Source of the DNA: Aphanothece sp. CMT-3BRIN-NPC111
GTDB lineage: Bacteria > Cyanobacteriota > Cyanobacteriia > Cyanobacteriales > JAHHGU01
Direction of reading: 5' to 3'
Length of the DNA stretch: 64,000 nucleotides
Assembly: GCA_019359765.1 (NCBI GenBank)
Contig: JAHHGU010000009.1
Location: forward strand, 18,776-82,775
In this document: in pieces, positions 355 to 46,475 of the stretch
How the letters are laid out: each line of letters begins with the position of its first letter
Numbering within the stretch: position 1 is the first letter of the stretch
Notes under the pieces: generated by a model
Told to the model about the DNA's origin: nothing
The model's database searches: none
Seen by the model: only the letters and a program-made list of their open reading frames with translations
Position numbers and translations under genes: made by a program

Positions 355-1056
355 ATGCAGGCAACAATCGATGAACTTTCTCAAATTCTCATCTTTCGAG
401 ATCTAACTAGCTCAGAATTAGAGCCTTTACAACCCTACACCCAAGTGCAGCACTACCGCCAAGGAGAGATTCTCATGCATGAGAGCGATCGCCTCCCGGC
501 GAAGCTATATGCTCTCCTCAGTGGTGCTTTGCAAATAACCAAAACAGCAACAACGGGCAAGGAAACGATTCTGCGTACCTTACCACCTGGAGAAATTTTT
601 GCAGCCCCAGCATTATTAGGTGATGGAATTGCCCCAGCAATGGTGACTGCTGGGTGTGATTCCATAATTCTCACGGTAGAGCGAGATGCTCTTATAGAAG
701 CAATTAGGCAAACCCCAGAAATTGCCTTACGAATGCTGATGGTTTTTAATTCTCGGCTGCAACAACTCCATGAAACAGTGCATGGATTAATTTCTGAACG
801 AGCGATTGTACGCTTGGCGAGGTTAATTCAAGATTCTGCAACTCGATACGGTATTGATACCAGAGCAGAGGGCGAGTGTTTGAAGGCTAAGCTGCCCTAT
901 TATCAAATTGCTCGCAGCATCGGCATTACCTATGAAGAGTGCGTGCGGCTGTTCAAAAGCCTGAAGTTGGTTGTGGCTTACAGTCGCGGTGGCAAGATTA
1001 CAGTGCTGGATGCGGAAAAATTGAATGCGATCGCCTCCGGCATCATAAATTCTTAA
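355..1056 (+). CDS. Crp/Fnr family transcriptional regulator (Dnr-like candidate)
   Basis: cNMP-binding-type N-domain (GKETILRTLPPGEIFA) and a C-terminal HTH (YYQIARSIGITYEECVRLF). Confidence 0.9.
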   Translation: MQATIDELSQILIFRDLTSSELEPLQPYTQVQHYRQGEILMHESDRLPAKLYALLSGALQITKTATTGKETILRTLPPGEIFAAPALLGDGIAPAMVTAGCDSIILTVERDALIEAIRQTPEIALRMLMVFNSRLQQLHETVHGLISERAIVRLARLIQDSATRYGIDTRAEGECLKAKLPYYQIARSIGITYEECVRLFKSLKLVVAYSRGGKITVLDAEKLNAIASGIINS

Positions 1057-32945: not shown

Positions 32946-33269
32946 TGCCTGGTGAGTTGGTAGCGATCGCACCGATTGACCATTCCCATAACCCTGGAAT
33001 AGGACCAGAGAAGTCTCTTGCGCCCCCTTCTCTCCTATGGGCCTCTGTTGGGGGGGTTAGGTTTTGGATGATAGGCTAGGGTGCGATCGCCTATTTCATC
33101 CAAGAAAGGCGATCGCGCCCCCAGTTTTTTCATTAGAACTCTTGCACGGCGTCGAGCAACCTTTTGCTCCAAATCTTGTGTAAATCTAGTGTTCATCTTT
33201 GGGTGAAACTCCAAAAAACATACTTTTGTAATAAGTCTATTCACTTTATCCGCCTTTAAGACAATTCTC

Positions 33270-34472
33270 ATGCCCTACCTAAAAGCGCAACATTTAACTG
33301 CCCAACTGCGGAAGTTTAATGAAAAATCAGAAAAAACTAACCGTAAATTAATATACTTTGGCGGTAAAATACGCTTTCAGTCAGAAACTGATTTAGAAAA
33401 TTATATCGAAACCAATTTTAATGAGATATTTCCTGATTTTGTTTTATTAAAGCGACAACATAGTATTAAAATGCAGCGATGTGATTTATTCGGCTGTGCT
33501 AAATCCAATAAACAGCCAGTGATTATTGAGTTAAAAAATGAAGAAGACAGATATATAGTTTCTCAGCTAATTCGGTATCGTAAAGCTATTTTGACAGATA
33601 AACCTTTTGCCGACGAAATAGATTACTCATTGCCAGTCAAGCTAGTAGCGATCGCACCTAGCTTTCATGAAGATAATTATACAGACAAAGAAGCTTCTAA
33701 GTTTGAGAATGATTTGTGCTTTTGGGCGTTTCGTGTTGAAAATCAAAATAACTCAGGTAAGTTTAAACTATGTGATAATACTTATGATATCCCTTACCCC
33801 ATATTTGGTTTACCCGATGTCCCAGCAAGCTCAGATGTAGCTGGTAATATTTTACCTGCTTTCACTTTGAACTTTGTAGGAAAACTACCAACAGAGTATA
33901 TAAATGATTTTATATATCTGCGTTCCCTGTTTATGTCTCAACCGAAAATCAAGGAAATGGTTAGCCCATCGTATAGTAAAATACTCTACGGTACTGGTCA
34001 AGGTGAAAACCATAAAAAGCTGGCAGAAATAACTAATACTAATAAAAGTGTATGTTTATTTCTTTGGTTGCCAACCCACGTTAAAACAAATATAAAAATA
34101 CCTGTAGCCCGATTCGGGTTTATTTTGGCTAAGGATAACAGTCCTTTGTCTAAAACTTCCATTATTGAATGGATAGTATGTACTAAAGATAATATTGAGC
34201 TTAAAAATAAACCTAGCACTAATATAGGTCTGTCCTCAAACAGGCATGGTATGGTAAAATGGTCTCAGCCTAATTTATACATTGCACAAGCTACATTCGG
34301 CTCGTCAAATACCTTTTGGTTAATCATGTATCTTCTAAAAGGTATTACGCCACCTATTGATGATGCTACTTCTCAATGGTGGGAATCATACAAAATAGAA
34401 AATCATAATGGGCTAGGCTGGTATATCGACTTGGCTATAAAAACTTGGAATTATCGGTTTAAAAAGCCCTGA
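33270..34472 (+). CDS. NucS/DUF91-like PD-(D/E)XK endonuclease domain protein
   Basis: SETDLENYI...RCDL...VIIELK...SQLIRY; AT-rich. Confidence 0.7.
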   Translation: MPYLKAQHLTAQLRKFNEKSEKTNRKLIYFGGKIRFQSETDLENYIETNFNEIFPDFVLLKRQHSIKMQRCDLFGCAKSNKQPVIIELKNEEDRYIVSQLIRYRKAILTDKPFADEIDYSLPVKLVAIAPSFHEDNYTDKEASKFENDLCFWAFRVENQNNSGKFKLCDNTYDIPYPIFGLPDVPASSDVAGNILPAFTLNFVGKLPTEYINDFIYLRSLFMSQPKIKEMVSPSYSKILYGTGQGENHKKLAEITNTNKSVCLFLWLPTHVKTNIKIPVARFGFILAKDNSPLSKTSIIEWIVCTKDNIELKNKPSTNIGLSSNRHGMVKWSQPNLYIAQATFGSSNTFWLIMYLLKGITPPIDDATSQWWESYKIENHNGLGWYIDLAIKTWNYRFKKP

Positions 34473-34580
34473 CTGAAATAAATGATTTACACTGTAGTGA
34501 GAACTTAAGCCCTCACTACAGTAGTAAATTAGGAAAAATCGGAATAGCGATAGTGTTCTAGTTTACCCATTTAAAATCTA

Positions 34581-34820
34581 TTACTGTAAAATACCTTCAA
34601 TTTCTTCATCAGTAAAGCCAAATTGCCTGAAAATACGCAGTACATAAGCCGGTGACATTTCTCCTACTCCCATATCTATAGGAACTACTCGGCGCTGTTC
34701 TTCAAATTCACGTATGTATAAGCAATGGTCTCCTTTTCCTTCTCTATAAAATCTGCATCCGCCTTTCTCCAGCAACTTAATTAGCTCTTTGGGTTTAAGG
34801 GAAGGTATATTTTTAGGCAT
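34581..34820 (-). CDS. hicA: HicA-family toxin
   Basis: KPKELIKLLEK...GKGDH...VVPI; catalytic His intact. Confidence 0.82.
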   Translation of the reverse strand: MPKNIPSLKPKELIKLLEKGGCRFYREGKGDHCLYIREFEEQRRVVPIDMGVGEMSPAYVLRIFRQFGFTDEEIEGILQ

Positions 34821-35088
34821 AAACCTTTCTTAATTCATATATCTCTGACCTTTGCTCTTGCTCCTCAACCATCAAGAACTCATGCAATTCTTCTATTGAA
34901 ATAGGAGCAGTATAAATACCTGATTTTTTTTCATAAACAGTTTGGAAAGAATCAATAGCATCTTTCAGCTTGCTAATTGCATTTTCTTGGGTATTACCTT
35001 GCCCTACTAGCCCATTTTCTAGGCACAAAGCAACCCAATAACCTGCACTTTGTCTTATTACTACTGTGTAAAAATCCATACTGTTCAC
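34813..35088 (-). CDS. hicB: HicB-family antitoxin
   Basis: YWVALCLENGLVGQGNTQENAISKLKDAI; overlaps hicA. Confidence 0.8.
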   Translation of the reverse strand: MNSMDFYTVVIRQSAGYWVALCLENGLVGQGNTQENAISKLKDAIDSFQTVYEKKSGIYTAPISIEELHEFLMVEEQEQRSEIYELRKVYA

Positions 35089-35133
35089 CTCGTATGTGAC
35101 GGTGTAAGGTGGGCATTGCCCACCTTACTTTGA

Positions 35134-37749
35134 TTATCTCCCAGCCGCTGTAGGCATCCCCAAAATATCTTCTATTCGGGGCATTTCTTCCAGTGGAATT
35201 ACGCGACCTTCATCCTCAAAATTAGCAATTTGATCGAAGTTGAGATAGCGATACAAGTTATCAGCAAAAGGATGAATCTTGTGGGCGACAATCTCTAGAT
35301 ATTCCTGCACTGTGGGAATACGACCTAACATTGCACAAACTGCTGCTAATTCAGCGGAACCGAGATAAACTCGCGCATCTTTACCCATGCGGTTATTGAA
35401 ATTGCGGGTGGAAGTAGAAAACACCGTTACCCCATCAGCAACCCGCGCCTGATTACCCATACATAGACTACAACCAGGCATTTCTGTACGCGCACCTGCT
35501 GCATTAAATACTCCGTAGATACCCTCTTCTTTTAATTGATGTTCATCCATGCGGGTTGGGGGACAAATCCACAAGCGGGTTTTAACAGTTGATTCACCTT
35601 CCAACACTTTTGCAGTAGCGCGGTAGTGACCGATATTAGTCATGCAGGAACCGACGAATACTTCTTGGATGGGATCGTTAGCAACCTCAGACAACAGCTT
35701 GACATTATCAGGGTCGTTCGGTGCGGCAACAATGGGTTCTGTGATCTCGTTAAGGTCAATCTCGATAATTTCCGCATACTCCGCATCTGCATCTGCTTCC
35801 ATAAGTACCGGATTCTCTAACCACTGCTCCATCTTGGCAACGCGACGCATAATAGTACGGGCATCTTGATATCCCCGCGCTGCCATATTTTTCAACAGGG
35901 CTACATTCGATCGCAAATACTCTGCTACTGTCTCCACACTCAGCTTAATCGTGCAACCAGCACAAGAACGTTCAGCGCTAGCATCGGTGAGTTCAAAAGC
36001 TTGCTCTACCTTTAAATCTGGCAAACCTTCAATCTCCATAATCCGCCCGGAGAAGACATTTTTCTTATTTTGCTTCTCCACAGTTAGCAAATTTTTTTGC
36101 ATCGCCACATAGGGAATCGCATTCACGATATCCCGCAGCGTGATACCTGGTTGCAACTCGCCTTTGAACCGCACTAAAACAGATTCCGGCATATCTAGCG
36201 GCATCACACCTAAGGCAGCTGCAAAGGCAACTAACCCAGATCCAGCTGGGAAGGAAATCCCCAAGGGGAAGCGGGTGTGGGAGTCGCCGCCAGTTCCCAC
36301 GGTATCTGGTAGTAGCATCCGGTTTAGCCAAGAGTGGATAATGCCATCGCCGGGACGCAAGGCAACGCCTGCGCGAGAGGAAAAGAAGTCTGGCAGTTCC
36401 TGGTGGGTTTTGACATCAACGGGTTTGGGATATGCTGCGGTGTGACAAAAGCTTTGCATCACTAAGTCAGCACTGAAACCTAGGCAGGCAAGTTCTTTTA
36501 GTTCGTCGCGGGTCATCGGCCCTGTGGTATCTTGGGAACCGACTGTAGTCATGATCGGGTCGCAGGAAGTACCGGGGCGAACTCCTTTAAGACCGCAAGC
36601 TTTCCCGACCATTTTTTGAGCCAGGGTGAAGCCTTTCCCTGTATCAATCGGGGGGCGGGGACGGATGAATAGGGGGCTGGGTTCTAATCCCTGTGCTGCA
36701 CGGATTTTATCGGTGAGTGTGCGCCCAATTAGTAAGGGGATGCGTCCACCTGCGCGTACTTCGTCGGTAATGGTATCTGGCTTGAGGGTAAAGGTGGAAA
36801 TGATTTCTCCAGCTTCGTTGGTAATTTCCCCTTTGTAGGGATGGATGGTAATGACCATCCCGGTTTCCATGTTGGTGACATCGCACTCAATAGGCAATGC
36901 CCCAGAGTCTTCGGCAGTGTTAAAGAAGATGGGCGCGATCGCACTTCCTAAAATATATCCCCCCGCCCGCTTATTCGGCACAAAGGGTATATCTTGTCCA
37001 ATATGCCACAGCACGGAGTTAATAGCCGATTTCCGGGATGAACCTGTACCCACCACATCCCCTACATAAGCAACGGGATGCCCTTTTTCCTTTAACTGGG
37101 CGATTGTTTCCAAGCTTCCCGGCTGCCTAGATTCCAGCATAGCTAAGGCGTGCAAGGGAATATCCGGGCGCGTGGTCGCATGGGTGGCGGGTGACAAATC
37201 ATCTGTATTCGTCTCTCCCGGTACTTTAAAGACGGTGACAGTAATGGCTTGTGGCAGGGGAGGGCGACTGGTGAACCACTCGGCCTCATCCCAAGCATCA
37301 ATAACGTGTTTGGCGTAAGGATTGGTTTTGGCTAATTCTTCGACATCGTGGAAGGCATCGTAAACCAGCACAATTTTACCGAGGGCATTTGCCGCTGCCG
37401 ATGCTAGTTTTTCATCAGATGTCTGAAGTAGGTCAATTAAAGATTGCACATTGTAACCGCCTACCATAGTACCTAGTAGTTCTACCGCGTAGGTGGGAGA
37501 AACTAAGGGAGTGGTAATTTCGCCTTTGGCTACAGAGGTGAGAAATGAGGCTTTGACGTAGGCTGCTGGATCGACTCCTGGAGGAATGCGATCGCGCAAA
37601 AGTTCTAACAGCGTCTCTTCTTCTCCCGTTGGGGGATTTTTCAGCAGTTCACACAATTGAGATGTTTGCTGGGCATCTAACGGCAGTGGTGGAATACCCA
37701 ATGCCGCCCGTTCTGCGACGTGTTGACGATAAGATTCAAGCATATTCAA
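35134..37749 (-). CDS. acnB: Aconitate hydratase B
   Basis: [34 protein letters not shown] and [10 protein letters not shown]. Confidence 0.98.
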
Positions 37750-37982
37750 GTCTCCACAAATGACATCAGCTTTCTTTGGCGGTGTTCGCTACGCACGTTC
37801 TCAAACTGGAGCATACAATTGCTGCACCGCCCTTAACAGTTAGAAGTGAACAGAAGGCATCGCCGCTACGAGGGGGCACAGATCAACATTATTAACTATT
37901 GTGAAGTAGTAATTTGTACACGTCACTGCAACTTCCCGCTAGGGGGGAATTTCTCGGTGGCTAAAATGCGCTTGTTATGGGT

Positions 37983-38029
37983 AAAAAATAAAAAAGGGCG
38001 ATCGCTCTAGATCTACCCTACTTTTTTTT
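37983..38029 (-). terminator. Probable terminator downstream of the pirA-like gene
   Basis: aggg...ccct stem flanked by A- and T-tracts. Confidence 0.45.
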
Positions 38030-38091
38030 AATTCCACACTGACAAGCAAATGTGGCTTTATCCCTGAAGCACAAAAGCGAAGCTAATTTAC

Positions 38092-38496
38092 TTAAAAAGC
38101 TATCTGCTTTGACTCCGCCTCCAGCAGGCGAAGCAGGCTTTCATCGCCCTTAGCTCTGGCTATGTTGAGCCTGCGTTCTAGGCTGCGGCGGATATTCGCT
38201 TGGTGAGCTATTGCCGCCTCATCCAGGAAGTTTTCACTACTTTTAGGGATTGGCAATGTCTTACCCGCAATTCTTGCCACAGGTTGATCTGCCACGGTTC
38301 CTTGTGCTGATGGCTGATTATTACCGTGGGCAACGCCACGATACATTAACTTAGGAACTGGTGGGGGTAGCGGAATATGCCTGACATAGCGAAAGCTGAA
38401 ATTTTGTCCCCGGTACTTACCGCAAATCTCGGCTTCCGTCACTTCCAGCGTGGGTGGATGGTTTTCGTAGTTGACACCGCGATAAGAGAGTTCCAT
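38092..38496 (-). CDS. pirA: DUF4278 (YRG-repeat) N-terminus fused to a PirA-like C-terminus
   Basis: Three YRG motifs as in the IF17 N-terminus; C-terminal HQANIRRSLERRLNIARAKGDESLLRLLEAE resembles PirA. Confidence 0.65.
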   Translation of the reverse strand: MELSYRGVNYENHPPTLEVTEAEICGKYRGQNFSFRYVRHIPLPPPVPKLMYRGVAHGNNQPSAQGTVADQPVARIAGKTLPIPKSSENFLDEAAIAHQANIRRSLERRLNIARAKGDESLLRLLEAESKQIAF

Positions 38497-38631
38497 ATGC
38501 TTCGCCTGTGATTCTATTTCCTGAATGTTGATTACAAACTGAGATACCCTCGTTGAGTATCGCGCTCTAGTTTCGCCTCCTCAGGAGATCTGGCTGGAAG
38601 AGCAGCGATTAGGCAAATTCAAAACTATTTC

Positions 38632-38647
38632 TGTATCTATTTTTACA
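38632..38647. promoter_or_regulatory. NtcA binding site
   Basis: TGTA-TCTATTTT-TACA (GTA-N8-TAC), overlapping the predicted -10 downstream of a minus-strand TTGACA (38667-38662). Confidence 0.75.
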
Positions 38648-38740
38648 ATTTTTCTAAGAAGTGTCAAATATTAATAAATGTTAAAAGCATATTCAACATG
38701 ATAGGTAATCTCAAGTTTGTTTAATTGCCATGTCTGGAAT

Positions 38741-40648
38741 TCAAAGCTCCACATTATTAACTAAATCATTAGAAAATTGAGCAGACGCAGGTTTGACAAT
38801 TTCAAGGATCAGCTCGTTTTCTACGACTAACTTCTTTTGGTCAACAAAATCAAAAATTTCCTCTTTGCTTAATCCGTAATCTTTACGAGCACTATAGATA
38901 GACAGAATAGCTAAAAGAGGCTTGATATGTTCAGCCTCCAACGGCACTAATTTTCCACTTAATGGAGGAGATAGCAGTTGAGTTAAATTCTCTTCAGCTT
39001 GAATATCAGCGAAGTTAATTTCTGGGGAACTAACTAAGCAGCCACGAGTCAGGTCAAACTTTTGGTAATCAATTAGTCGCTTTAATCCATTGGCGAATTC
39101 TATACCGTTAGATGACGGAGTTACCGCGACACCAATTTTGACTGTTTGCTCGTCTTCCTTACCAAGGATTTTGAAGTCAATATAACCTTTGTTTGCACCT
39201 TGAGGTTCAACTTTATCAATGCGCTCTACTTCTAATTGGTCTAGGGTTTTTCCTATAACGGTAAAGAAGCACAGCAAAAGAGCAGCAGCAACTGTAGGCT
39301 TATCCTGCAACAAGTTTCCTAGAGATTCTTCAACAGTTGTAAGTTCTTTATTGAATAAAGCTTCAACAGGATGAGCCTCTACTAAGTTCAAGTCATCTTT
39401 CGCTTCATGGACATTTATCGTTGCATCAGGAACTTTAAAATGTTCTGCACACCATTGCAAAACTTGCCGGATAGTGGTTTTTTGTTTCCCAAGTTTTTTA
39501 AGCTGGCTTTCTGTAAACGGGTAAACAGGATCAGGGGGAACTAAATTTAGTGTTTCGTAAAAATTGTTAAGCAATACAGTGACTAGCTCAACAATAGAGT
39601 CTCCATCTATATATTTTAACTCAATCGGATCTTTTGTTGCTGCTGAAACCCGATAGGGAAGACCGCCAGGAAGGGTATTTATTTGCAGTTTCCATGTATC
39701 GGGTAGCATTACTGTTAGAATGATCACCCCATGACTGCGGCTGGAGAGAGTAAGACTGTCAAACAGATTTTTAACTAATTCAGCAACCACCTGTGCTTTG
39801 GTAGCACCAGCATTATTGAGCGTGACACCCTCTAGTTCGTCAAAACACACAAGTAGGGGTCTATACTCATCGATTAAACTCAATATTTGGAGAACAAAAT
39901 CAAAAGCTTGAGCTTCTCGCTCTTCTTGAGAGTGATTGGGTAGCCGCAATTCCGCAGCTTTTGCCTCGGATAGATCGTTCCCAGATAACCATTTAATGGC
40001 GTAAGCTGCATGGTTTTCTGAGAGAGTCAATAAAATAGCCCTAATAATATCTGGATCGATGTTGGGTTTACTTTTACTAATTACTGAAGTTAGGCTATCA
40101 ATAAAGCTATTATTTTTCTCAATAACATATGTAAATTGGTTTGCGACTATATCTTTAGGCGATTGAATAATTTTTTCTACTTGCCCTAATTTATTAACAG
40201 ATGTGTAAGCTTCTATCAAGATATCAACAGCTAGTTCTTGCCACTGGCTGATGCCTTGGCTACCAATTTGATTAAGGCTATGTGATAAAATTTGTAAAAA
40301 TTGGTATTGAATCAGGTTTAATTCACTAAAGTTACTGGCGCTAGCATAGATAAATAGAGCGTTATCCTCATTTAGCAGCAAGTGGCGAATGCGGCTAATG
40401 AGGTGAGTTTTACCAATTCCTTGTTCACCTGTTATGGCAATTGAGGTGACTTTGGCTTGACTAGAGCTAAGTTGTCTAATCGTTTGAAAAATAGCATCAG
40501 AAGCGTGAGCATTCAGAGTAGGGATATCAAAAAATTCTGGCTCCCAAACGTCTTGAATTCTGACAGCGGCACCTCTATCCAGAAAGGGGTTATGGGTTTG
40601 GATGGCAGCGTTGAGTTCTTCAATAGAAGAATTAGAAGATATGCTCAT
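38741..40648 (-). CDS. P-loop (AAA+/STAND-like) ATPase, paralog 2
   Basis: Walker A GEQGIGKT, Walker B LLVCFDE. Confidence 0.85.
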   Translation of the reverse strand: MSISSNSSIEELNAAIQTHNPFLDRGAAVRIQDVWEPEFFDIPTLNAHASDAIFQTIRQLSSSQAKVTSIAITGEQGIGKTHLISRIRHLLLNEDNALFIYASASNFSELNLIQYQFLQILSHSLNQIGSQGISQWQELAVDILIEAYTSVNKLGQVEKIIQSPKDIVANQFTYVIEKNNSFIDSLTSVISKSKPNIDPDIIRAILLTLSENHAAYAIKWLSGNDLSEAKAAELRLPNHSQEEREAQAFDFVLQILSLIDEYRPLLVCFDELEGVTLNNAGATKAQVVAELVKNLFDSLTLSSRSHGVIILTVMLPDTWKLQINTLPGGLPYRVSAATKDPIELKYIDGDSIVELVTVLLNNFYETLNLVPPDPVYPFTESQLKKLGKQKTTIRQVLQWCAEHFKVPDATINVHEAKDDLNLVEAHPVEALFNKELTTVEESLGNLLQDKPTVAAALLLCFFTVIGKTLDQLEVERIDKVEPQGANKGYIDFKILGKEDEQTVKIGVAVTPSSNGIEFANGLKRLIDYQKFDLTRGCLVSSPEINFADIQAEENLTQLLSPPLSGKLVPLEAEHIKPLLAILSIYSARKDYGLSKEEIFDFVDQKKLVVENELILEIVKPASAQFSNDLVNNVEL

Positions 40649-40976
40649 CGGGATCTGTATTAAGGTAGGGAACTAGATAATTTGCTAGAAACGTTCTACC
40701 CCTTTAGGGGTACGGGGTGAAAGGCAAGGCAGAATGAATGTGTCTAGCTAAGTTAATCCTATATTAAGCTGCTGTGCATCTAATACAGGATAGAACTGGC
40801 AGCTTGTGTTGCCTGCGCTATAGGAAGCCTGAAACTTACAGACTTGCAAGTTAAATGCGCGATCGCCTAAAAGCTGACGCTAACCTTAAAAAGGTCAATA
40901 TATCTTACCCGATCCGGGACGATATTCCTCGCGTACCTAAGCCGAAGCACTCTAACGGCCGCTACTCCAGGCAAAT

Positions 40977-42488
40977 CTAGCTGCTTATATGGGGAAGAGG
41001 CGGGGGGTTTTGTTCAATTGGCAAGTCGCGCAGGAAGTAAAAGCGATCGCGCCTCCACTCATCCGCCTTAATTCGCCCCAAGTAACCAGCCAAAGGGGAG
41101 CAAAGCTCGATCAGAATTTCGTGCAGTTCTCGATCTGATAAAGATTTCGGTGGATTAGAGGCATCATAGACACCACAAAGGCGTTCAACTCCCACTGCTT
41201 CTAGTTTTTTCTCTTCTTGATACTTCTTCAAAACTTGGACTAGATGCGATCGCAGTTTGATACCTTGTTGAACCTTATCAATATAGCTGTTAACTTTATC
41301 GTCAACTACGCCAAACGGCTCTTGTTGGAAACATTGTTTCAGTTCTAGCAAATTTATAGAGCCTTCGTGCTTGGCTTTGAGTTCAACTAGCTTTTGCAAA
41401 GTTTCAGGGCGAATGACATTCATTTTGTTTTCAATAGCTGCTTTACGAGCTGGCTCAGTTAAAGGGCCAGCAGCAAAAATTAACTTGATAGAGTGGTCAA
41501 ACTGTACTTGACCGAGATGAGTCACACCCAAATGGATGAGTTGGGCTGTGACGCTGTTCGGCACACTTTCATTTTTACTGGCTTTGCATTCACCAACAAC
41601 TGGATAGGGAGCCTCACAGTAAATATCTATTCCTCCCGCCCCTCCAGTTGCATTAGGATCGAGACTTGCTTTTGAATTGCGATTAGAGTTTGTGAAACCT
41701 AGCTTGATAAAGCTCTTGCGGACTAGCTTTTCAAATGCTTGACCGTCACTGGAGTTCCCTACCTCAGCAATTTTATGAATCCAGGCTAAATCGGGGTTAG
41801 GTTGTGTTACGGGTGAAGATTCAGTCCAACCTAGAAATATTTTGAGTTCGCCGTCTAGCTTTTTAGCGGCTGGGTTGGTAATGGCTAGCTGCGCGATCGT
41901 TCCCTGCAACTCTTCTAATTCAGGATGTGGCGGTGGCAGTCGATGTTCTAGTTGGTGTCGGCGTTGGGCGAAGGTGCGATCGCTCAACACTGGCGATGAT
42001 TCCGAAACCGTCAGAGAATGTTGTAAACCAACAAACTTGCCCAGTTGATTTTGATTTTCAGGACTGACAAGAATTTCAATCGGCTCAGGTATCAGATAAA
42101 CACGCAGGTAAGCGATAAAAATATGCGGTCGTGGCAAAAGTATTTCCTGTAAGGCTTCTCTTCTCCAAACTGTTAATCGTGATAAAGCTTCTAAAGGTTC
42201 TGTCTTATCCCAAATTTGGCAAAACTCACACCTAGCCCAAGCTTTAGTTTTAACTGTTTCAGTATTTTCGTTAATGATAGCAGTCTGGGCAATCGGCAAA
42301 AAACTAGCTCGGTAGCATTCTTCCAGTGGTAGAGCATTAATCGATCTGTCAGACGGATACAGGGCAAATTGCCGTCCCTGCTCAATAGTTACTCTAGGAG
42401 TCGTTGCAATCATCTGCCCCTGAATTAAGGCTTCAACATCAGGGGCAGGTAAACATAAGGCTGTATAAATTGGAACTAAATTACTCAT
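40977..42488 (-). CDS. DUF1802-like N-domain + Mrr-like PD-(D/E)XK nuclease + C-terminal wHTH-like domain
   Basis: N-terminal ALIQGQMI...FALYP...AYLRVY; nuclease motif FEKLV...LGF...GGIDI...GECKAS. Confidence 0.7.
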   Translation of the reverse strand: MSNLVPIYTALCLPAPDVEALIQGQMIATTPRVTIEQGRQFALYPSDRSINALPLEECYRASFLPIAQTAIINENTETVKTKAWARCEFCQIWDKTEPLEALSRLTVWRREALQEILLPRPHIFIAYLRVYLIPEPIEILVSPENQNQLGKFVGLQHSLTVSESSPVLSDRTFAQRRHQLEHRLPPPHPELEELQGTIAQLAITNPAAKKLDGELKIFLGWTESSPVTQPNPDLAWIHKIAEVGNSSDGQAFEKLVRKSFIKLGFTNSNRNSKASLDPNATGGAGGIDIYCEAPYPVVGECKASKNESVPNSVTAQLIHLGVTHLGQVQFDHSIKLIFAAGPLTEPARKAAIENKMNVIRPETLQKLVELKAKHEGSINLLELKQCFQQEPFGVVDDKVNSYIDKVQQGIKLRSHLVQVLKKYQEEKKLEAVGVERLCGVYDASNPPKSLSDRELHEILIELCSPLAGYLGRIKADEWRRDRFYFLRDLPIEQNPPPLPHISS

Positions 42489-44338
42489 TCGTCAACTGCA
42501 TCAGTTGGAATTTGACCAGATGGATCGCTTAAAATTTCTTTCAATAGAGGGTTATTGGCTGTCAGCCCGGTTACGTCAATGAAATCAAAAATTTGCTCTT
42601 CGCTTAATCCATAGTCTTGACGAGCTTCATAAACCGACTGAATGGCAATCAGAGGTTTTACATCTTCTACTTTTAGCATTGCCCACTCCCCACCCAGTTC
42701 TGATATAAGTTTGTCAAGATGAGTTTGGGCATTCCAGCGAGGATTGATTTTTTTAGAGCGAACTAAGCAACCACGAGTTAAACCAAATTTTTTGTATTGA
42801 ACTAGGCGACTTAATCCTGCTGTCACCCCTTTTCCATGTGAGTATTGCAGAATAGAAACTCCGATTTTAACAACTTTATCCTTTTCAGTCCCAAGCACCT
42901 TGAAGTTAATGTAACCAGCGTTATCTCTTTTCGGCTCAACACCTGTGACATCTTGTATTGTCACTCCTTCTACATTTTTATGGATTAAAGTACGAAAACC
43001 AAATTTAAGAGCCTTTTCAAGCAATGAAAAATCTTCTAGATACTCTCCTAAGCCTTCTTCAAGCTCTTTATTAAAAGCAAGTTCAACGGGAGGCTTTATT
43101 GGTTCAATTATTGGCGGAGCTGGGTCAACTATAATACGCGGCTTAAAGTTATCTGCACACCATCTCAAAATCTGTCTAACAGTTAGTTTCTGCCTGCCTA
43201 GTTCCACAAGTTCTTCTTTCTCAAAAGGATAAGTAGCAGTGGGAGGGACTAAATTTTTGTCTTTGTAAAAGTTCTCTAGCCACAGAGTAACTAACTTAAC
43301 AATGGAACTACCGTCCATGTAATTTAGATCGATGGGGTTGGGCTGTGCTGCTGAAACTCTTGCTGGTATTCCAGAAGCATTGGAAAATTGCTTGATTTTG
43401 TTTTTCCATGTATCGGGTAGCATTACTGTGACAATGACACCCCGGTTTATATTATCAAAAAGATCCTTTACTAAACTAGCAATAACCTGTGCTCTTGTTA
43501 AACCAGCATCATCAACTTCATTAGCATCCAATTCGTCAAAACAAACAATCAATGTGTTATAATCACTGATTAAGTTTAGTAGTTGGCAAACGGTTTCAAA
43601 AGCTTCTGCTTCTTTATCACTATCTTCATAGTCAGGATTAGGCAATTCCAGTGCGTTAGATTTTGCCTCAGAGAGGGATTTTCCCGATAACCACTTAATT
43701 GCGTGTGGTGCATAGTCTTCTGAAAGTGTTAACAAAATAGCGCGTATAATATCCGGATCTACACGTTTCAAGCGGCGAAAGTCTGCGGCTAGTTTGTCTA
43801 CCCAGTCTATGTTTTTTGCGGCTGCACTATTAGGGTTACTAAATGTTTCGACTAGCTGTTTTGCAGAAAAAAGTTGGGCATTGGGGTTCATAGCTCTCCA
43901 TGCTTTATTAGCCATATCCGCAGCTAGTTCCTGCCACTGCATGACCCCTTGACTACCAATTTGACTGAGGCTATCTGCCAATATTTGCTGAAACTGGTAC
44001 TTAATTAGGTTCAAGTTGCCATACTTACGTGCATAAACAAATAAAGCCCCCCCCTCAGCCTGAAGACGATGCCGAATGCGGCTAATGATGTGACTTTTGC
44101 CAACTCCTGGTTCAGCAGTCATGGCAATTGAAGTCACTTTACATTGACCACTACGAACCTGCTCAATTGCTCGGAAAATCGCATCTGAAGCTTCAGCGTT
44201 TAGAGTTTCAACATCAGGGAAACCCTTGTCCCATACATCTTGATTCGTGACAATCGCAGGTTTGTCAAATAGGTTGTAGCTTTGGATAGCAGCGCTGAGG
44301 GCTTCAATGGAGGATACAGGAGAGCTAGTCATAATCAT
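42485..44338 (-). CDS. P-loop (AAA+/STAND-like) ATPase, paralog 1
   Basis: Walker A AEPGVGKS, Walker B LIVCFDE; ATGA overlap with the nuclease gene. Confidence 0.85.
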   Translation of the reverse strand: MIMTSSPVSSIEALSAAIQSYNLFDKPAIVTNQDVWDKGFPDVETLNAEASDAIFRAIEQVRSGQCKVTSIAMTAEPGVGKSHIISRIRHRLQAEGGALFVYARKYGNLNLIKYQFQQILADSLSQIGSQGVMQWQELAADMANKAWRAMNPNAQLFSAKQLVETFSNPNSAAAKNIDWVDKLAADFRRLKRVDPDIIRAILLTLSEDYAPHAIKWLSGKSLSEAKSNALELPNPDYEDSDKEAEAFETVCQLLNLISDYNTLIVCFDELDANEVDDAGLTRAQVIASLVKDLFDNINRGVIVTVMLPDTWKNKIKQFSNASGIPARVSAAQPNPIDLNYMDGSSIVKLVTLWLENFYKDKNLVPPTATYPFEKEELVELGRQKLTVRQILRWCADNFKPRIIVDPAPPIIEPIKPPVELAFNKELEEGLGEYLEDFSLLEKALKFGFRTLIHKNVEGVTIQDVTGVEPKRDNAGYINFKVLGTEKDKVVKIGVSILQYSHGKGVTAGLSRLVQYKKFGLTRGCLVRSKKINPRWNAQTHLDKLISELGGEWAMLKVEDVKPLIAIQSVYEARQDYGLSEEQIFDFIDVTGLTANNPLLKEILSDPSGQIPTDAVDE

Positions 44339-44373
44339 TCGTGTGAGTTAAGGAAGCTACAAGCAGATGAAAA

Positions 44374-45042
44374 TCAATTGTTAGAGCTTATTCGTTTAGC
44401 GTAGTAGCGCAATCCAGCTAACTGAGTCGTAATCGAGTCTTCAGCTTTATCAGGTGTGATATCTGACATCTCTCCCGCCATCAGCTGCAAAATATCGTTA
44501 GCTTGCATTTCCAGCATCCACTCGTTGAACTGAGAACGGCTAACGCGATCGCCCACCTCTCTTCTAATCCGGTAAATCGGCACCAGATTATCCAGGTTAT
44601 AGTCGCGGTTAAGTTGGTCATAGACATCCAAAGCCACTTGCTTAAACTCGTCGTAAGATGCAACTGCATCCTCTGACTTCTTAGTTGCACCATCAGCTAG
44701 TGTTCCCATCTCCCCGATCCACTTCAACAAAGCATTGGCTGTTCTGGCTCCAATTTGGCTGTCAAACTTAAATTCAGGGCTTTTCAGTCCTTCGCCTAGC
44801 ATCTGGACACCTTTATCAAACAGAGAGACTTTATTTTTGACGATCGCGATCGCGCCCTCTTTCTCCAATTGTTCAAAAACGCCCTTATAGTCCCCAGCCG
44901 TCTCATTAGTCCGTGTAATTCGTTTGGTTAATTCACCTTTCTTAACTTCTGTTGTCGCTCCTCCCATGTCCCACAACGCCAGAAGGATGCGGGTTTTAGC
45001 TTGAGCTTCAGAACCATGTAAACCTTTAGTTTTTGGTGCCAT
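44374..45042 (-). CDS. Putative double winged-helix DNA-binding protein
   Basis: RILLALW...FEQLEKEGAI and LVPIYRIRREVG...SRSQFNEWMLEM patterns. Confidence 0.65.
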   Translation of the reverse strand: MAPKTKGLHGSEAQAKTRILLALWDMGGATTEVKKGELTKRITRTNETAGDYKGVFEQLEKEGAIAIVKNKVSLFDKGVQMLGEGLKSPEFKFDSQIGARTANALLKWIGEMGTLADGATKKSEDAVASYDEFKQVALDVYDQLNRDYNLDNLVPIYRIRREVGDRVSRSQFNEWMLEMQANDILQLMAGEMSDITPDKAEDSITTQLAGLRYYAKRISSNN

Positions 45043-45215
45043 ATTAGGTATATTCCCAAGTTTTTGAGAGATAAAATTAGAGTTTCAGGTAAAAATACTT
45101 AGCAATACCCTACCCTTACATCTCAAGCAAATTGCCAGTCGATGCTGTATAGAATGATGGTGCAGATTGACAGAAAAATTACACCTGATTAAAAAAAGTT
45201 AGTATCCAATTACTC

Positions 45216-46475
45216 GTGGAAATCGACTCTATCCTTAAACCTTTTCAACGCTTTGGCGTCCATCTTGGACTAGAGCGAATTCAGCGACTATTGGCAGATT
45301 TGGGCAACCCACACCACTCAGTCCCAGTCATCCATGTAGCTGGAACCAACGGCAAAGGCTCGGTTTGTGCCTACCTCTCCGCAGTCCTGACAGAGGCAGG
45401 CTATCGCGTGGGACGCTACACCTCTCCCCATCTAATTGATTGGACTGAACGCATCTGTATTAACGAACAGCCGATTTCATCTGAGACGCTAGGAGAATTA
45501 CTCCTTGCAGTCCAGGATGCTATCCGCACCGATACAGAAACTCCAACTCAGTTTGAAGTCATCACAGCAGCGGCGTGGTTGTATTTTGCCCAACAGCAGG
45601 TAGATGTCGCTGTGGTGGAAGTGGGGCTGGGAGGACGCTTGGATGCGACTAATGTATGTGATCGCCCCCTGGTAAGCATCATCACCTCCATTAGTCGGGA
45701 ACACTGGCAGCAACTAGGGCCAACCTTAGCTGACATTGCCACAGAAAAAGCCGGTATCCTCAAACCAGGATGCCCAGCTGTAGTGGGATTATTGCCCCCA
45801 GAAGCAAAAGCTGTAATAGCGCAAAAGATTGCCCAGTTGGGATGCCCAGCAGTTTGGCCTCAACCAGCACGACAGATAGGAGAGGGTTGGGCTGAATACC
45901 AGGGCATCAAGTATCCTTTGCCGCTACTAGGAGACATCCAGCTAATTAACTCAGCATTAGCGATCGCCGCCTTACAAATTCTCTGTTCACAAGGCTGGAA
46001 GATTTCTGAACAAGCGATCGCCGCAGGTATGGCAAAAACCAACTGGCCTGGACGCCTTCAGTGGACAACCTGGAAAAATCACCGATTACTAATTGACGGT
46101 GCCCACAATCCAGCTGCCGCCCAAGCACTTCGCCAGTATGTCGATACTTGTGGCGTCTCCGTGACTTGGGTAATGGGGATGCTATCTACAAAAGATCATG
46201 CCGAGATTTTTAAGGCATTACTGCAATCGGGCGATCGCTTGTACTTAGTACCAGTCCCGGATCATAGTTCAGCAGATCCAGAACATTTAGCCACCCTAGC
46301 GGGAAACATCTGCCCACAGCTAGGCGATCGCCGAACCTTCCCAAATCTCACCAAAGGGCTAGAGGCGGCAACCTCAACCGCCACCGCCAAGAATTTATTA
46401 GTCCTATGTGGCTCACTTTATCTAGTTGGCTATTTCCTGAAACAGGTAATGGCTCATGATAGCTATGAGTTATGA
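45216..46475 (+). CDS. folC: Folylpolyglutamate/dihydrofolate synthase
   Basis: HVAGTNGKGS, EVGLGGRLDATN, WPGR and DGAHN. Confidence 0.97.
   Translation: MEIDSILKPFQRFGVHLGLERIQRLLADLGNPHHSVPVIHVAGTNGKGSVCAYLSAVLTEAGYRVGRYTSPHLIDWTERICINEQPISSETLGELLLAVQDAIRTDTETPTQFEVITAAAWLYFAQQQVDVAVVEVGLGGRLDATNVCDRPLVSIITSISREHWQQLGPTLADIATEKAGILKPGCPAVVGLLPPEAKAVIAQKIAQLGCPAVWPQPARQIGEGWAEYQGIKYPLPLLGDIQLINSALAIAALQILCSQGWKISEQAIAAGMAKTNWPGRLQWTTWKNHRLLIDGAHNPAAAQALRQYVDTCGVSVTWVMGMLSTKDHAEIFKALLQSGDRLYLVPVPDHSSADPEHLATLAGNICPQLGDRRTFPNLTKGLEAATSTATAKNLLVLCGSLYLVGYFLKQVMAHDSYEL

Follow-up and report, generated by a model that had tools for sequence, protein, structure and literature searches.

A three-gene ATPase-nuclease cassette with a DUF1802 domain in filamentous cyanobacteria, a candidate restriction-type system

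Gene organization of the pirA-folC locus

We analysed a 64,000-nucleotide stretch of DNA from Aphanothece sp. CMT-3BRIN-NPC111 (assembly GCA_019359765.1, contig JAHHGU010000009.1, positions 18,776 to 82,775; hereafter the window), in which a cluster of genes between pirA and folC had been proposed, in a first-pass annotation made from the sequence alone, to be an undescribed four-gene defence system. The open reading frame (ORF) list of the window contains four co-oriented genes here, all on the minus strand, with products of 222, 617, 503 and 635 amino acids (AA), and agrees to the base with the sizes and positions annotated. Gene 1 (44374..45042) encodes the 222-AA protein, which has an N-terminal winged helix-turn-helix (wHTH) region (residues ~5-111) and a conserved C-terminal domain (~125-222). 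Gene 2 (42485..44338) encodes the 617-AA protein, an AAA+ ATPase placed in the ORC/Cdc6 clade by its AAA_16 and VIA fold matches, and gene 3 (40977..42488) the 503-AA three-domain nuclease. Beyond a 328-bp spacer (40649..40976) lies the gene of the 635-AA protein (38741..40648), an extra ATPase paralogue that is outside the universal core described below.

The motifs quoted in the annotation are present in the translations. The Walker A sequence AEPGVGKS is at residues 75-82 of the 617-AA ATPase (44093..44116, minus strand) and the Walker B sequence CFDE at residues 266-269 (43532..43543, minus strand); FEKLV, GGAGGIDI and GECKAS are found in the 503-AA nuclease, and GEQGIGKT and CFDE can be read in the 635-AA ATPase. 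The annotated ATGA overlap between genes 2 and 3 was likewise confirmed: in GACGAATGAGTAAT the stop codon TGA of the ATPase shares bases with the ATG of the nuclease. None of the four cassette proteins (0/4) has a methyltransferase domain in Pfam, as had been noted. A tblastn search of the window with the four proteins (E up to 10) found no remnant of a wHTH or nuclease gene in the spacer, and the repeats within 37700-45300 are the two paralogous ATPases only. The flanking genes were identified as pirA (NF050139, 58.2 bits vs. a cut-off of 50), acnB (TIGR00117) and folC (TIGR01499), the last two each above cut-off. The G+C content of the cassette (0.38-0.46) is lower than that of acnB and folC (0.47-0.52).

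The recurring unit consists of three genes

Relatives of the nuclease were collected from three sources. Of 40 same-order genomes searched, 17 contained full-length relatives, and 19 loci were fetched; a contig scan with one genome per species gave 497 stretches encoding a relative, of which the best 80 were fetched, those 80 all from cyanobacteria; and metagenomes supplied 14 further loci, giving 113 loci in total. The order wHTH > ATPase > nuclease on one strand was observed in 16/19 same-order loci, 68/80 contig loci and 7/14 metagenome loci, with a wHTH homologue immediately upstream of the ATPase in 91 of the 113. The 22 loci that fail comprise cuts at contig ends (L017, L045, L052, L067, L078, L080, L086, L090, L095, L124, L126, L127 and L131-L133), decayed copies or lone genes (L014, L029, L036, L075, L085 and L093) and one locus, L120, with an ATPase635-like gene only. 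When the flanking ORFs of 100 loci were clustered, the nuclease was present in 98, the ATPase in 90 and the wHTH protein in 88, and the next family in 31. Relatives are thus abundant and syntenic, and these are genes far beyond chance.

Co-occurrence in other genomes could also be counted directly. Among 41 same-order genomes (G000 and the 40 others), 17 contain all three genes, 19 contain none and 5 have fragments or partial sets. The recurrent order, together with the fact that only three families are ubiquitous, indicates that the functional unit is a three-gene cassette. The four-gene system of the first-pass annotation therefore does not stand, as the recurring unit has three genes and the 635-AA ATPase is a paralogue found in few genomes; its pairing of an NTPase with a nuclease does, the two being functionally tied by gene order, co-occurrence and the natural fusions presented below.

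The 635-AA ATPase is 49% identical to the 617-AA ATPase over 626 columns and clades, with support of 1.0, with extra ATPases encoded upstream of the cassette in L011 and L018. Extra ATPases were seen in 4 of the 99 loci L011-L109 (L011, L018, L021 and L034) in addition to the window. In L120, a related metagenome locus, the ATPase635-like gene follows a 32-residue wHTH remnant and lies next to folC; this remnant and the clade shared with L011 and L018 suggest that the 635-AA ATPase probably descends from a second, partly lost cassette. With its Walker A and B motifs intact and orthologues 58-62% identical, it is probably functional. Diverged cassettes also occur in tandem: three in L033 (Oscillatoria sp. 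PCC 10802) and two each in L043, L068 and L074. The second copy in L068 and L074 is just 35-37% identical to the window nuclease. Two nuclease genes stand side by side in L031, L087 and L106.

The ATPase belongs to the ORC/Cdc6 radiation

Both ATPases match AAA_16 in Pfam (E 4.5e-8 for the 617-AA protein), and at E up to 0.1 the families matched are AAA_16, NPHP3_N, AAA_22, NACHT, KAP_NTPase and others. The model of the 617-AA ATPase has a predicted local distance difference test score (pLDDT) of 87.3. In the VIA comparison, residues 15-402 aligned with ORC/Cdc6 proteins (7jgr_G, 2qby_A; Z 14.6), TnsC (Z 13.9, 13.8 and 13.3) and MuB (Z 13.1), and the ATPase also aligned with BrxC (Z 12.8; 290 residues, the longest alignment) and Avs3 (Z 12.6), as well as with CED-4 and plant NLRs, for which the ranges reach residues 575-579. 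These fold matches make the ATPase a member of the ORC/Cdc6 radiation of DNA-binding AAA+ switches; judged by its model, it is an ORC/Cdc6-clade AAA+ protein.

The model has a helical insert of ~150 AA between Walker A and Walker B, then the lid. In an alignment of 21 ATPases the Walker A residues G78, G80 and K81 and the Walker B residue D268 are invariant, the residue after D268 being E, Q or D, and in a set of 93 sequences these Walker A residues and D268 are each at least 95% conserved. R327 is nearly invariant and R388 invariant in the 21-sequence alignment, which marks the two as candidate arginine-finger and sensor 2 residues. After the lid come an alpha/beta domain (~437-547) and a terminal helical or winged-helix (WH) region. 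A Foldseek search with the ATPase returned the restriction endonuclease (REase) EcoT38I at rank 44 (E 1.5e-3), and a conserved acidic/Lys catalytic motif is absent from ~437-547 in the 21-sequence alignment. The match and the lack of conserved catalytic residues fit an inactive REase-like domain, and the model makes such an identity for ~437-547 possible. The profiles of the ATPase and the nuclease were unrelated in hhalign, so the C-terminal domain of the ATPase is no recognisable copy of the nuclease, and an Atlas structure search with residues 415-617 found no named family. Neither Pfam nor the model showed a repeat domain in the ATPases. One match to a YTH family in the PDB profile search of the ATPase (E 0.0085) falls inside the helical insert and was taken as chance.

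The ATPase evolves fastest of the three proteins, at 42-51% identity vs. 60-67% for the nuclease and 56-71% for the wHTH protein. In syntenic genomes the cassette proteins diverge more quickly than their neighbours; between L012 and the window, AcnB is 89% identical, FolC 73%, the wHTH protein 71%, the nuclease 63% and the ATPase 49%.

Two of 100 ATPases carry a SeqA C-terminal-like (SeqA-C-like) domain at their end. The 723-AA ATPase of L015 (5396-7567, plus strand) matches SeqA-C with E 1.1e-5 and 26.0 bits vs. a cut-off of 25.5, and the 817-AA ATPase of L023 (4237-6690, minus strand) scores 23.4 bits, under the cut-off; the extensions are ~100 AA long and 42% identical to each other. SeqA-C reads hemimethylated GATC, at replication origins. 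The presence of such a domain on the ATPases would be a second, independent fusion of cassette proteins to a DNA-modification reader, and hints that these two variants sense the methylation state of GATC.

The nuclease combines an ASCH-like, a FokI-like and a winged-helix domain

The model of the 503-AA protein (pLDDT 81.3) shows three domains. The first is DUF1802 (PF08819, E 1.5e-33; residues 10-179, 41952..42461, minus strand). Foldseek related residues ~5-165 to ASCH/PUA-like structures, namely ZmASCH and TRIP4 ASCH-dsDNA complexes (E 3e-3 to 3e-2, probability 0.96-1.0), and VIA aligned DUF1802 with CXorf40A (Z 10.0; 141 residues aligned, root-mean-square deviation 3.5) and ZmASCH (Z 8.8). 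This ASCH/PUA-like fold makes the reader role earlier suggested for DUF1802 plausible; the domain is a candidate reader of a modified base or another nucleic-acid feature, the ligand being a prediction, and W84, W108 and Y131 would belong to its putative pocket. A stand-alone 200-AA DUF1802 protein is encoded in the genome that contains the window, G000 (contig C7, L110:1438-2040, minus strand), between the gene of a ComEC-like membrane protein and a split transporter-like gene, and it scores 247 bits vs. 119 for the fused copy. PF08819 also matches the control genomes of Synechococcus elongatus and Deinococcus radiodurans. The score of the stand-alone protein and these control matches indicate that the canonical DUF1802 family is a free-standing protein.

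The second domain is a PD-(D/E)XK domain of the FokI cleavage-domain type (residues 228-408, 41265..41807, minus strand). Its best VIA matches are FokI (2fok_A, Z 14.3; 150 residues aligned, root-mean-square deviation 3.3) and N.BspD6I (Z 13.8), and the small subunit of R.BspD6I (12.5), HindIII (10.6) and the Mrr-like AF1548 (10.2) also align. The predicted catalytic residues E253, D288, E300 and K302 do not vary in 16 sequences, and across 101 their conservation is at least 95%. Mrr_cat matches all 16 aligned nucleases weakly (E up to 1), the best at 2.2e-4; the relative P0121 reaches E 1.3e-7. The "Mrr-like" label of the first-pass annotation needs correction: the D288 and E300/K302 motif is conserved, but Mrr_cat is only borderline and the best folds are those of FokI and N.BspD6I.

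The third domain is a C-terminal winged helix (residues 409-495, 41004..41264, minus strand), which VIA aligned with two Cdc6/ORC WH domains (Z 11.4 and 10.8), the ScpA C-terminal WH (9.0) and MarR (9.0). The winged helix and the catalytic core are the best-conserved parts of the nuclease, and the 20-residue window 461-480 scores 0.82. A search of PDB sequences with the nuclease profile gave one chance match (E 0.73).

A profile search of 1.84 billion representatives returned 470 matches at E up to 1e-3, 177 of them at E up to 1e-30, and among the relatives were natural fusions of the two enzymes. P0194 (895 AA) consists of a complete ATPase (residues 1-620, hhalign probability 100), a Pro-rich linker and the nuclease with its WH, but has no DUF1802; its nuclease part retains the catalytic motifs and shares 65% identity with residues 230-491. 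As the closest natural fusion, it is 60% identical to the 635-AA ATPase. P0248 (897 AA) matches the ATPase profile with an hhalign probability of 100 and is a fusion like P0194, P0250 (892 AA) is similar to it by Pfam, and ATPase-nuclease fusions were found on several independent contigs. Elsewhere the nuclease and WH stand behind ParB_N (P0239) or TPR (P0196, Phormidium nigroviride WP_449419612.1) instead of DUF1802. Such exchanges of the N-terminus suggest that the nuclease and its WH form a portable effector whose sensor or recognition head can be swapped.

Two apparent fusions, G274:C94 and G360:C32 (L118 and L119, with open-frame values of 1118 and 1156), proved to be separate genes with in-frame stops between them. 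Of two metagenome scans for fusions of the P0194/P0248 type, the first found none and the second unfused cassettes only. Complex prediction for the ATPase with nuclease residues 230-503 scored 0.00, which is no verdict and speaks neither for nor against binding.

The wHTH protein

The 222-AA protein matched no family in Pfam, NCBIfam, PADLOC or PHROG, where the PHROGs gave noise only. An Atlas structure search related residues 5-111 to the HTH_45 wHTH (TM 0.76 by row, below the tool's bar), and the wHTH profile gave weak MarR and TubR matches among PDB sequences (E ~0.6), with no DndG-type match at E up to 5. The wHTH support is limited to the N-terminal half, and the C-terminal half is the best-conserved segment of the protein. 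The mean column identity in a 17-sequence alignment is 53%. From sequence, the protein may be either a DNA-recognition subunit or a regulator.

Relation to known systems

In the PADLOC check that had been proposed, the four proteins were compared with PADLOC-DB v2.0 at E up to 0.1 and gave two noise matches only (E 0.02, 12-13 bits). Neither DUF1802 nor the combination of Mrr_cat and AAA_16 led to a relevant paper in full-text literature searches, and in public annotation the nuclease relatives are called "DUF1802 family protein" or "hypothetical protein". The closest precedent is one sentence by Krishnan, Burroughs, Iyer and Aravind (NAR 2024; PMC10853773, section 22) on operons of an Orc/Cdc6 ATPase, an ASCH-REase plus a triple-wHTH protein resembling DndG, predicted to provide immunity against selfish elements. 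This sentence means that the architecture is not wholly undescribed: the earlier statement that no named system fits was borne out by PADLOC, but the same parts list had been predicted in that paper. The cassette thus has no name, no PADLOC v2.0 model and no experiment that we found in the literature, and its architecture has been noted once in silico.

By the paper's description, its operon shares with the cassette the Orc/Cdc6 ATPase, the ASCH-fused REase and a separate small wHTH protein. In the ATPase, the alpha/beta domain between the lid and the helical/WH end may correspond to the inactive REase that, according to the paper, follows the AAA+ core and precedes the C-terminal wHTH in its Orc/Cdc6 version. 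The paper calls its operons mobile and their multi-wHTH proteins rapidly evolving, whereas the cassette is syntenic, chromosomal and lineage-wide, and its wHTH protein shows the highest conservation of all three components; the mobile neighbourhoods of the paper (PMC10853773) have no counterpart here, where the pirA/folC position is stable and the flanks are housekeeping genes.

FokI and the N.BspD6I/R.BspD6I pair, which gave the best nuclease folds, also tether a non-specific cleavage domain to separate DNA-recognition modules, and the multi-wHTH proteins are related to the FokI DNA-binding domain (PMC10853773). In the cassette, in contrast, recognition would be shared by the ASCH-like domain, the WH and a protein of its own, the link to an AAA+ ATPase is obligatory, there is no cognate methyltransferase, and the nuclease has no sequence-level match to any PDB chain. 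PUA domains are fused to Mrr-like catalytic domains and to the McrB GTPase (Lutz et al. 2019, PMC6765204), and reader-nuclease fusions of the PUA/ASCH superfamily are described as modification-dependent restriction enzymes (Lutz et al. 2019, PMC6765204; Bell et al. 2020, PMC7641849). The cassette nuclease resembles these in having a PUA/ASCH reader-like domain on a PD-(D/E)XK core and no methyltransferase, but differs from Mrr type IV enzymes in that its N-terminus is DUF1802, not Mrr_N, and its gene is obligatorily linked to those of the ATPase and the wHTH protein. Characterised type IV enzymes use SRA-, EVE- or YTH-type readers, alone or with a McrB-type GTPase, and not an ORC-like ATPase with a wHTH protein.

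McrBC likewise pairs an AAA+ NTPase with a PD-(D/E)XK nuclease, the two genes being translationally coupled within an operon. The cassette ATPase, however, matches AAA_16, KAP and AAA_22 in Pfam (E up to 0.1) and not the McrB-type AAA_5, its nuclease has no McrC family, and it is the nuclease, rather than the NTPase, that carries the reader. In the BrxC/DUF499 ATPases of BREX and BREX-related systems, an ORC/Cdc6 AAA+ precedes a series of wHTH, alpha+beta and wHTH domains (PMC12839542), an order to which the cassette ATPase is similar in its ORC/Cdc6-clade AAA+ with wHTH and alpha+beta domains after it. BrxC is 1200-1300 AA long, compared with 617 AA here, and the cassette, which is flanked by pirA, acnB and folC, has no PglZ, PglX methyltransferase or BrxA/B. 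In Avs/STAND systems the arrangement is different as well: the effector here is a separate gene, the ATPases have no repeat sensor, and Avs3 is one of many AAA+ matches. TnsC of Tn7 is a good fold match for the ATPase; no fourth gene recurs in 100 loci, the window shows no flanking repeats at 37700-45300, and 16 nucleases gave no TnsA match in Pfam.

Proposed mode of action

On balance we favour, at slightly better than even probability, a restriction-type system that depends on NTP and targets DNA in which a given base modification is present, or absent. A defence role is likely, most probably as restriction of invading DNA. For the cassette we infer DNA binding, ATP dependence, a ligand of the ASCH-like domain, cleavage and the defence role, and its parts might work together as follows. 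In its ATP state the ATPase would bind duplex DNA and oligomerise like ORC/Cdc6, TnsC, MuB and BrxC, as its fold and Walker motifs suggest. The small wHTH protein may provide DNA recognition or autoregulation of the operon. The nuclease would be recruited and licensed by the ATPase; gene order, co-occurrence and fusions show a functional coupling of the two, which may involve physical contact. The ASCH-like DUF1802 domain would then read a base modification or another nucleic-acid feature, the ligand being assumed, and the non-specific FokI-like domains, in which the fold and the E/D/ExK residues are seen, would pair and cut both strands. As there is no methyltransferase in the cassette, self and foreign DNA could be told apart in a type-IV-like manner, in which modified foreign DNA is cut, or through orphan methylation of the host.

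Distribution and alternative explanations

The distribution of the nuclease was examined across the phylum by scoring it at E up to 1e-30 in 401 evenly sampled genomes. It was found in 73, very unevenly: it is present in 22/25 genomes of family f32, all 19 species of genus g32, 35/45 genomes of family f7 and 8/8 species of genus g50, whereas it occurs in 0/20 genomes of family f9, 0/29 of f44 and 1/225 of twelve further families. Named carriers include Nostoc, Calothrix, Microcoleus, Oscillatoria, Coleofasciculus and similar genera; L106 is from Calothrix sp. PCC 7716 and L075 from Calothrix parasitica NIES-267. Both pirA and folC border the cassette in the window, L011, L012, L018, L022 and L024; it adjoins folC in L071, L087 and L120, and pirA in L021, L033, L043 and L052.

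Several observations weigh against a restriction-type defence system. The loci at the pirA/folC position span several GTDB families, and the cassette is near-universal in some genera (19/19 in g32, 8/8 in g50). At other positions the genes that recur beside the cassette are of the housekeeping kind (PGI, Fpg, ABC transporter, fibrillin and rhodanese genes, and in addition Uma2), with fpg flanking the cassette in 24 loci. PADLOC applied to 148 representatives of flank families (L011-L109) gave sporadic matches only, namely PDC-S03 in 4, PycC in 2, a single Cas12k and a single MTase_II. A tblastn search with the nuclease found no match in 72,556 plasmids, IMG/VR viral contigs contained no relative of it, and a search of sequencing runs returned 3 sources with DNA reads and none with RNA reads. 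The defence island anticipated by the first-pass annotation was thus not borne out: the recurrent neighbours have housekeeping functions, and several lineages have conserved the cassette by vertical descent. It behaves like a trait that is fixed in the chromosomes of filamentous cyanobacteria and inherited vertically, and not as a mobile defence island. On the protein side, conservation is highest in the wHTH protein, a misfit with the "rapidly evolving" multi-wHTH specificity subunit described in PMC10853773, and the ASCH likeness goes no further than the fold (Foldseek E 3e-3, TM 0.46-0.54 by target). Moreover, ASCH proteins also include RNases and amidohydrolases, so a reader of DNA modification is not the sole option for this domain. 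The Mrr_cat match of the window nuclease (E 7.9e-4) stays at 20.0 bits, vs. a Pfam cut-off of 21.

These features of context are also what would be expected if the cassette served genome maintenance, monitoring the polyploid chromosomes of its own cell for their state of methylation or replication and, for example, processing hemimethylated or aberrant DNA, with no antiviral role. Its near-universal presence in some lineages (f32, g32, f7 and g50), the pirA/folC position conserved in several GTDB families, the housekeeping flanks, the lack of nuclease matches on plasmids and viral contigs and the SeqA-C-like domain on two ATPases all fit such a role, as does the small number of decayed copies (~6 of 113 loci: L029, L014, L036, L075, L085 and L093). 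Yet the cassette is not found in most of the phylum, with 73/401 genomes positive and next to none in f9, f44 and the twelve families, and its absence from 19 of 41 same-order genomes means that it is dispensable. Diverged tandem copies, swapped N-terminal sensors and fast evolution of the ATPase are typical of conflict systems, and the G+C content is lower than in the flanks, so that we regard a purely housekeeping function as unlikely. Quite improbable, in our estimate, is a variant in which the gene set is not a phage-defence island but a lineage-fixed machine by which multicellular polyploid cyanobacteria survey the state of their own DNA: the ORC-like ATPase would load on the chromosome, ASCH- and SeqA-C-like readers would check host methylation, and the FokI-like nuclease would remove un- or hemi-methylated DNA present at the wrong time. 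If this were true, epigenetic marks would be tied to the control of replication or copy number, with exclusion of foreign DNA as a secondary effect.

Restriction of incoming DNA must also be set against abortive infection by a STAND/NLR-type switch, in which the ATPase would sense a phage protein or aberrant nucleic acid, oligomerise and unleash the nuclease on all DNA, so that the cell is killed or arrested. FokI-type cleavage domains are sequence-non-specific, and the Pfam matches of the ATPases (AAA_16, NPHP3_N, NACHT and KAP_NTPase), the VIA alignments with Avs3 (Z 12.6), CED-4 and plant NLRs, the rapid divergence of the ATPase relative to the other two proteins and the TPR N-terminus on the nuclease and WH module of P0196 lend this view some weight. 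The top folds, however, are the DNA-binding ORC/Cdc6, TnsC and MuB and not STAND proteins, though the Z values differ by no more than ~2 units, and no repeat-type sensor domain was seen on the ATPase; the ASCH-like and WH domains of the nuclease and the SeqA-C-like domain of two ATPases point to sensing of the state of DNA and not of a protein. We therefore consider abortive infection improbable. A domesticated Tn7/Mu-like remnant, with a TnsC/MuB-like AAA+ regulator and a TnsA-like PD-(D/E)XK-WH endonuclease after loss of the transposase, appears very improbable. TnsA has a PD-(D/E)XK domain followed by a WH, an arrangement shared by the cassette nuclease, and TnsC (Z 13.9, 13.8 and 13.3) and MuB (13.1) are among the best ATPase folds; the Tn7 and Mu ATPases are placed within the Orc/Cdc6 radiation (PMC10853773). 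But there is no transposase, integrase or terminal repeat, the repeats at 37700-45300 being the paralogous ATPases only, just three gene families recur in 100 loci, and the position is stable across families. The TnsA family of Pfam matched 0/16 nucleases at E up to 1, and TnsA was not among the 50 VIA rows listed for the nuclease, which we took only as no support for an origin from a transposon.

Significance of the cassette

Should the cassette restrict DNA, as we favour, it would be a very common barrier that phages and attempts at genetic manipulation meet in cyanobacteria of the Nostoc, Microcoleus and Oscillatoria types, its carriers being 73 of the 401 sampled genomes and nearly all species of two large families. 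Mechanistically, it would be a compact and tractable example of ORC/Cdc6-type ATPases driving nucleases in conflict systems, a theme so far argued mainly through comparative genomics (PMC10853773, PMC12839542), and DUF1802 would gain a function. As a vertically inherited, syntenic gene set with no plasmid matches, the cassette also offers a test case for "defence-like" architectures that become fixed as host functions. The ATPase-nuclease fusions, the SeqA-C variants, the tandem arrays and the FokI-like fold are new observations.

Upstream region and neighbouring genes

The divergent intergenic region between folC and the cassette (45043..45215) is a probable promoter. The sequence AGT-ATTTTT-ACCT, an AGGT-N6-ACCT-like inverted repeat, lies ~57 nt upstream of the wHTH start in the window. 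In an alignment of five syntenic upstream regions a motif [AG]GT-N2-TTT-N1-2-ACCT was seen 38-57 nt upstream of the wHTH start in the window, L011, L012, L022 and L024. It was found in 5 of 83 upstream regions, all five being those that define it, with a background of 0.0016 per 200 nt; because it is restricted to its defining regions, we take it as weak evidence for a lineage-specific element and not as a general operator. The inverted-repeat-like motif may be a lineage-specific operator or promoter element. A scan for promoters and terminators gave 5 promoter-like sites, vs. 13.4 expected, and 0 terminators, and was uninformative.

The 134-AA product of the pirA-like gene of the window (38092-38496, minus strand) has DUF4278 (E 2.9e-20) in its N-terminal part and a PirA motif (NF050139, residues 90-130) in its C-terminal part, and in L014, L022 and L024 an additional short gene with DUF4278 only stands beside the pirA-like gene. 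Among the flank proteins of the loci surveyed, one matches Cas12k/Cas12j models with E 1e-163 to 1e-170, and another matches type II cytosine methyltransferase models with E 1e-73. Just past acnB, the G+C content of the window dips to 0.35-0.38 (33000-35100). This dip contains ORFs of 400 AA (33270-34472, plus strand) and 91 AA (34813-35088, minus strand), the latter with a start that we take to resemble a HicB-type antitoxin.

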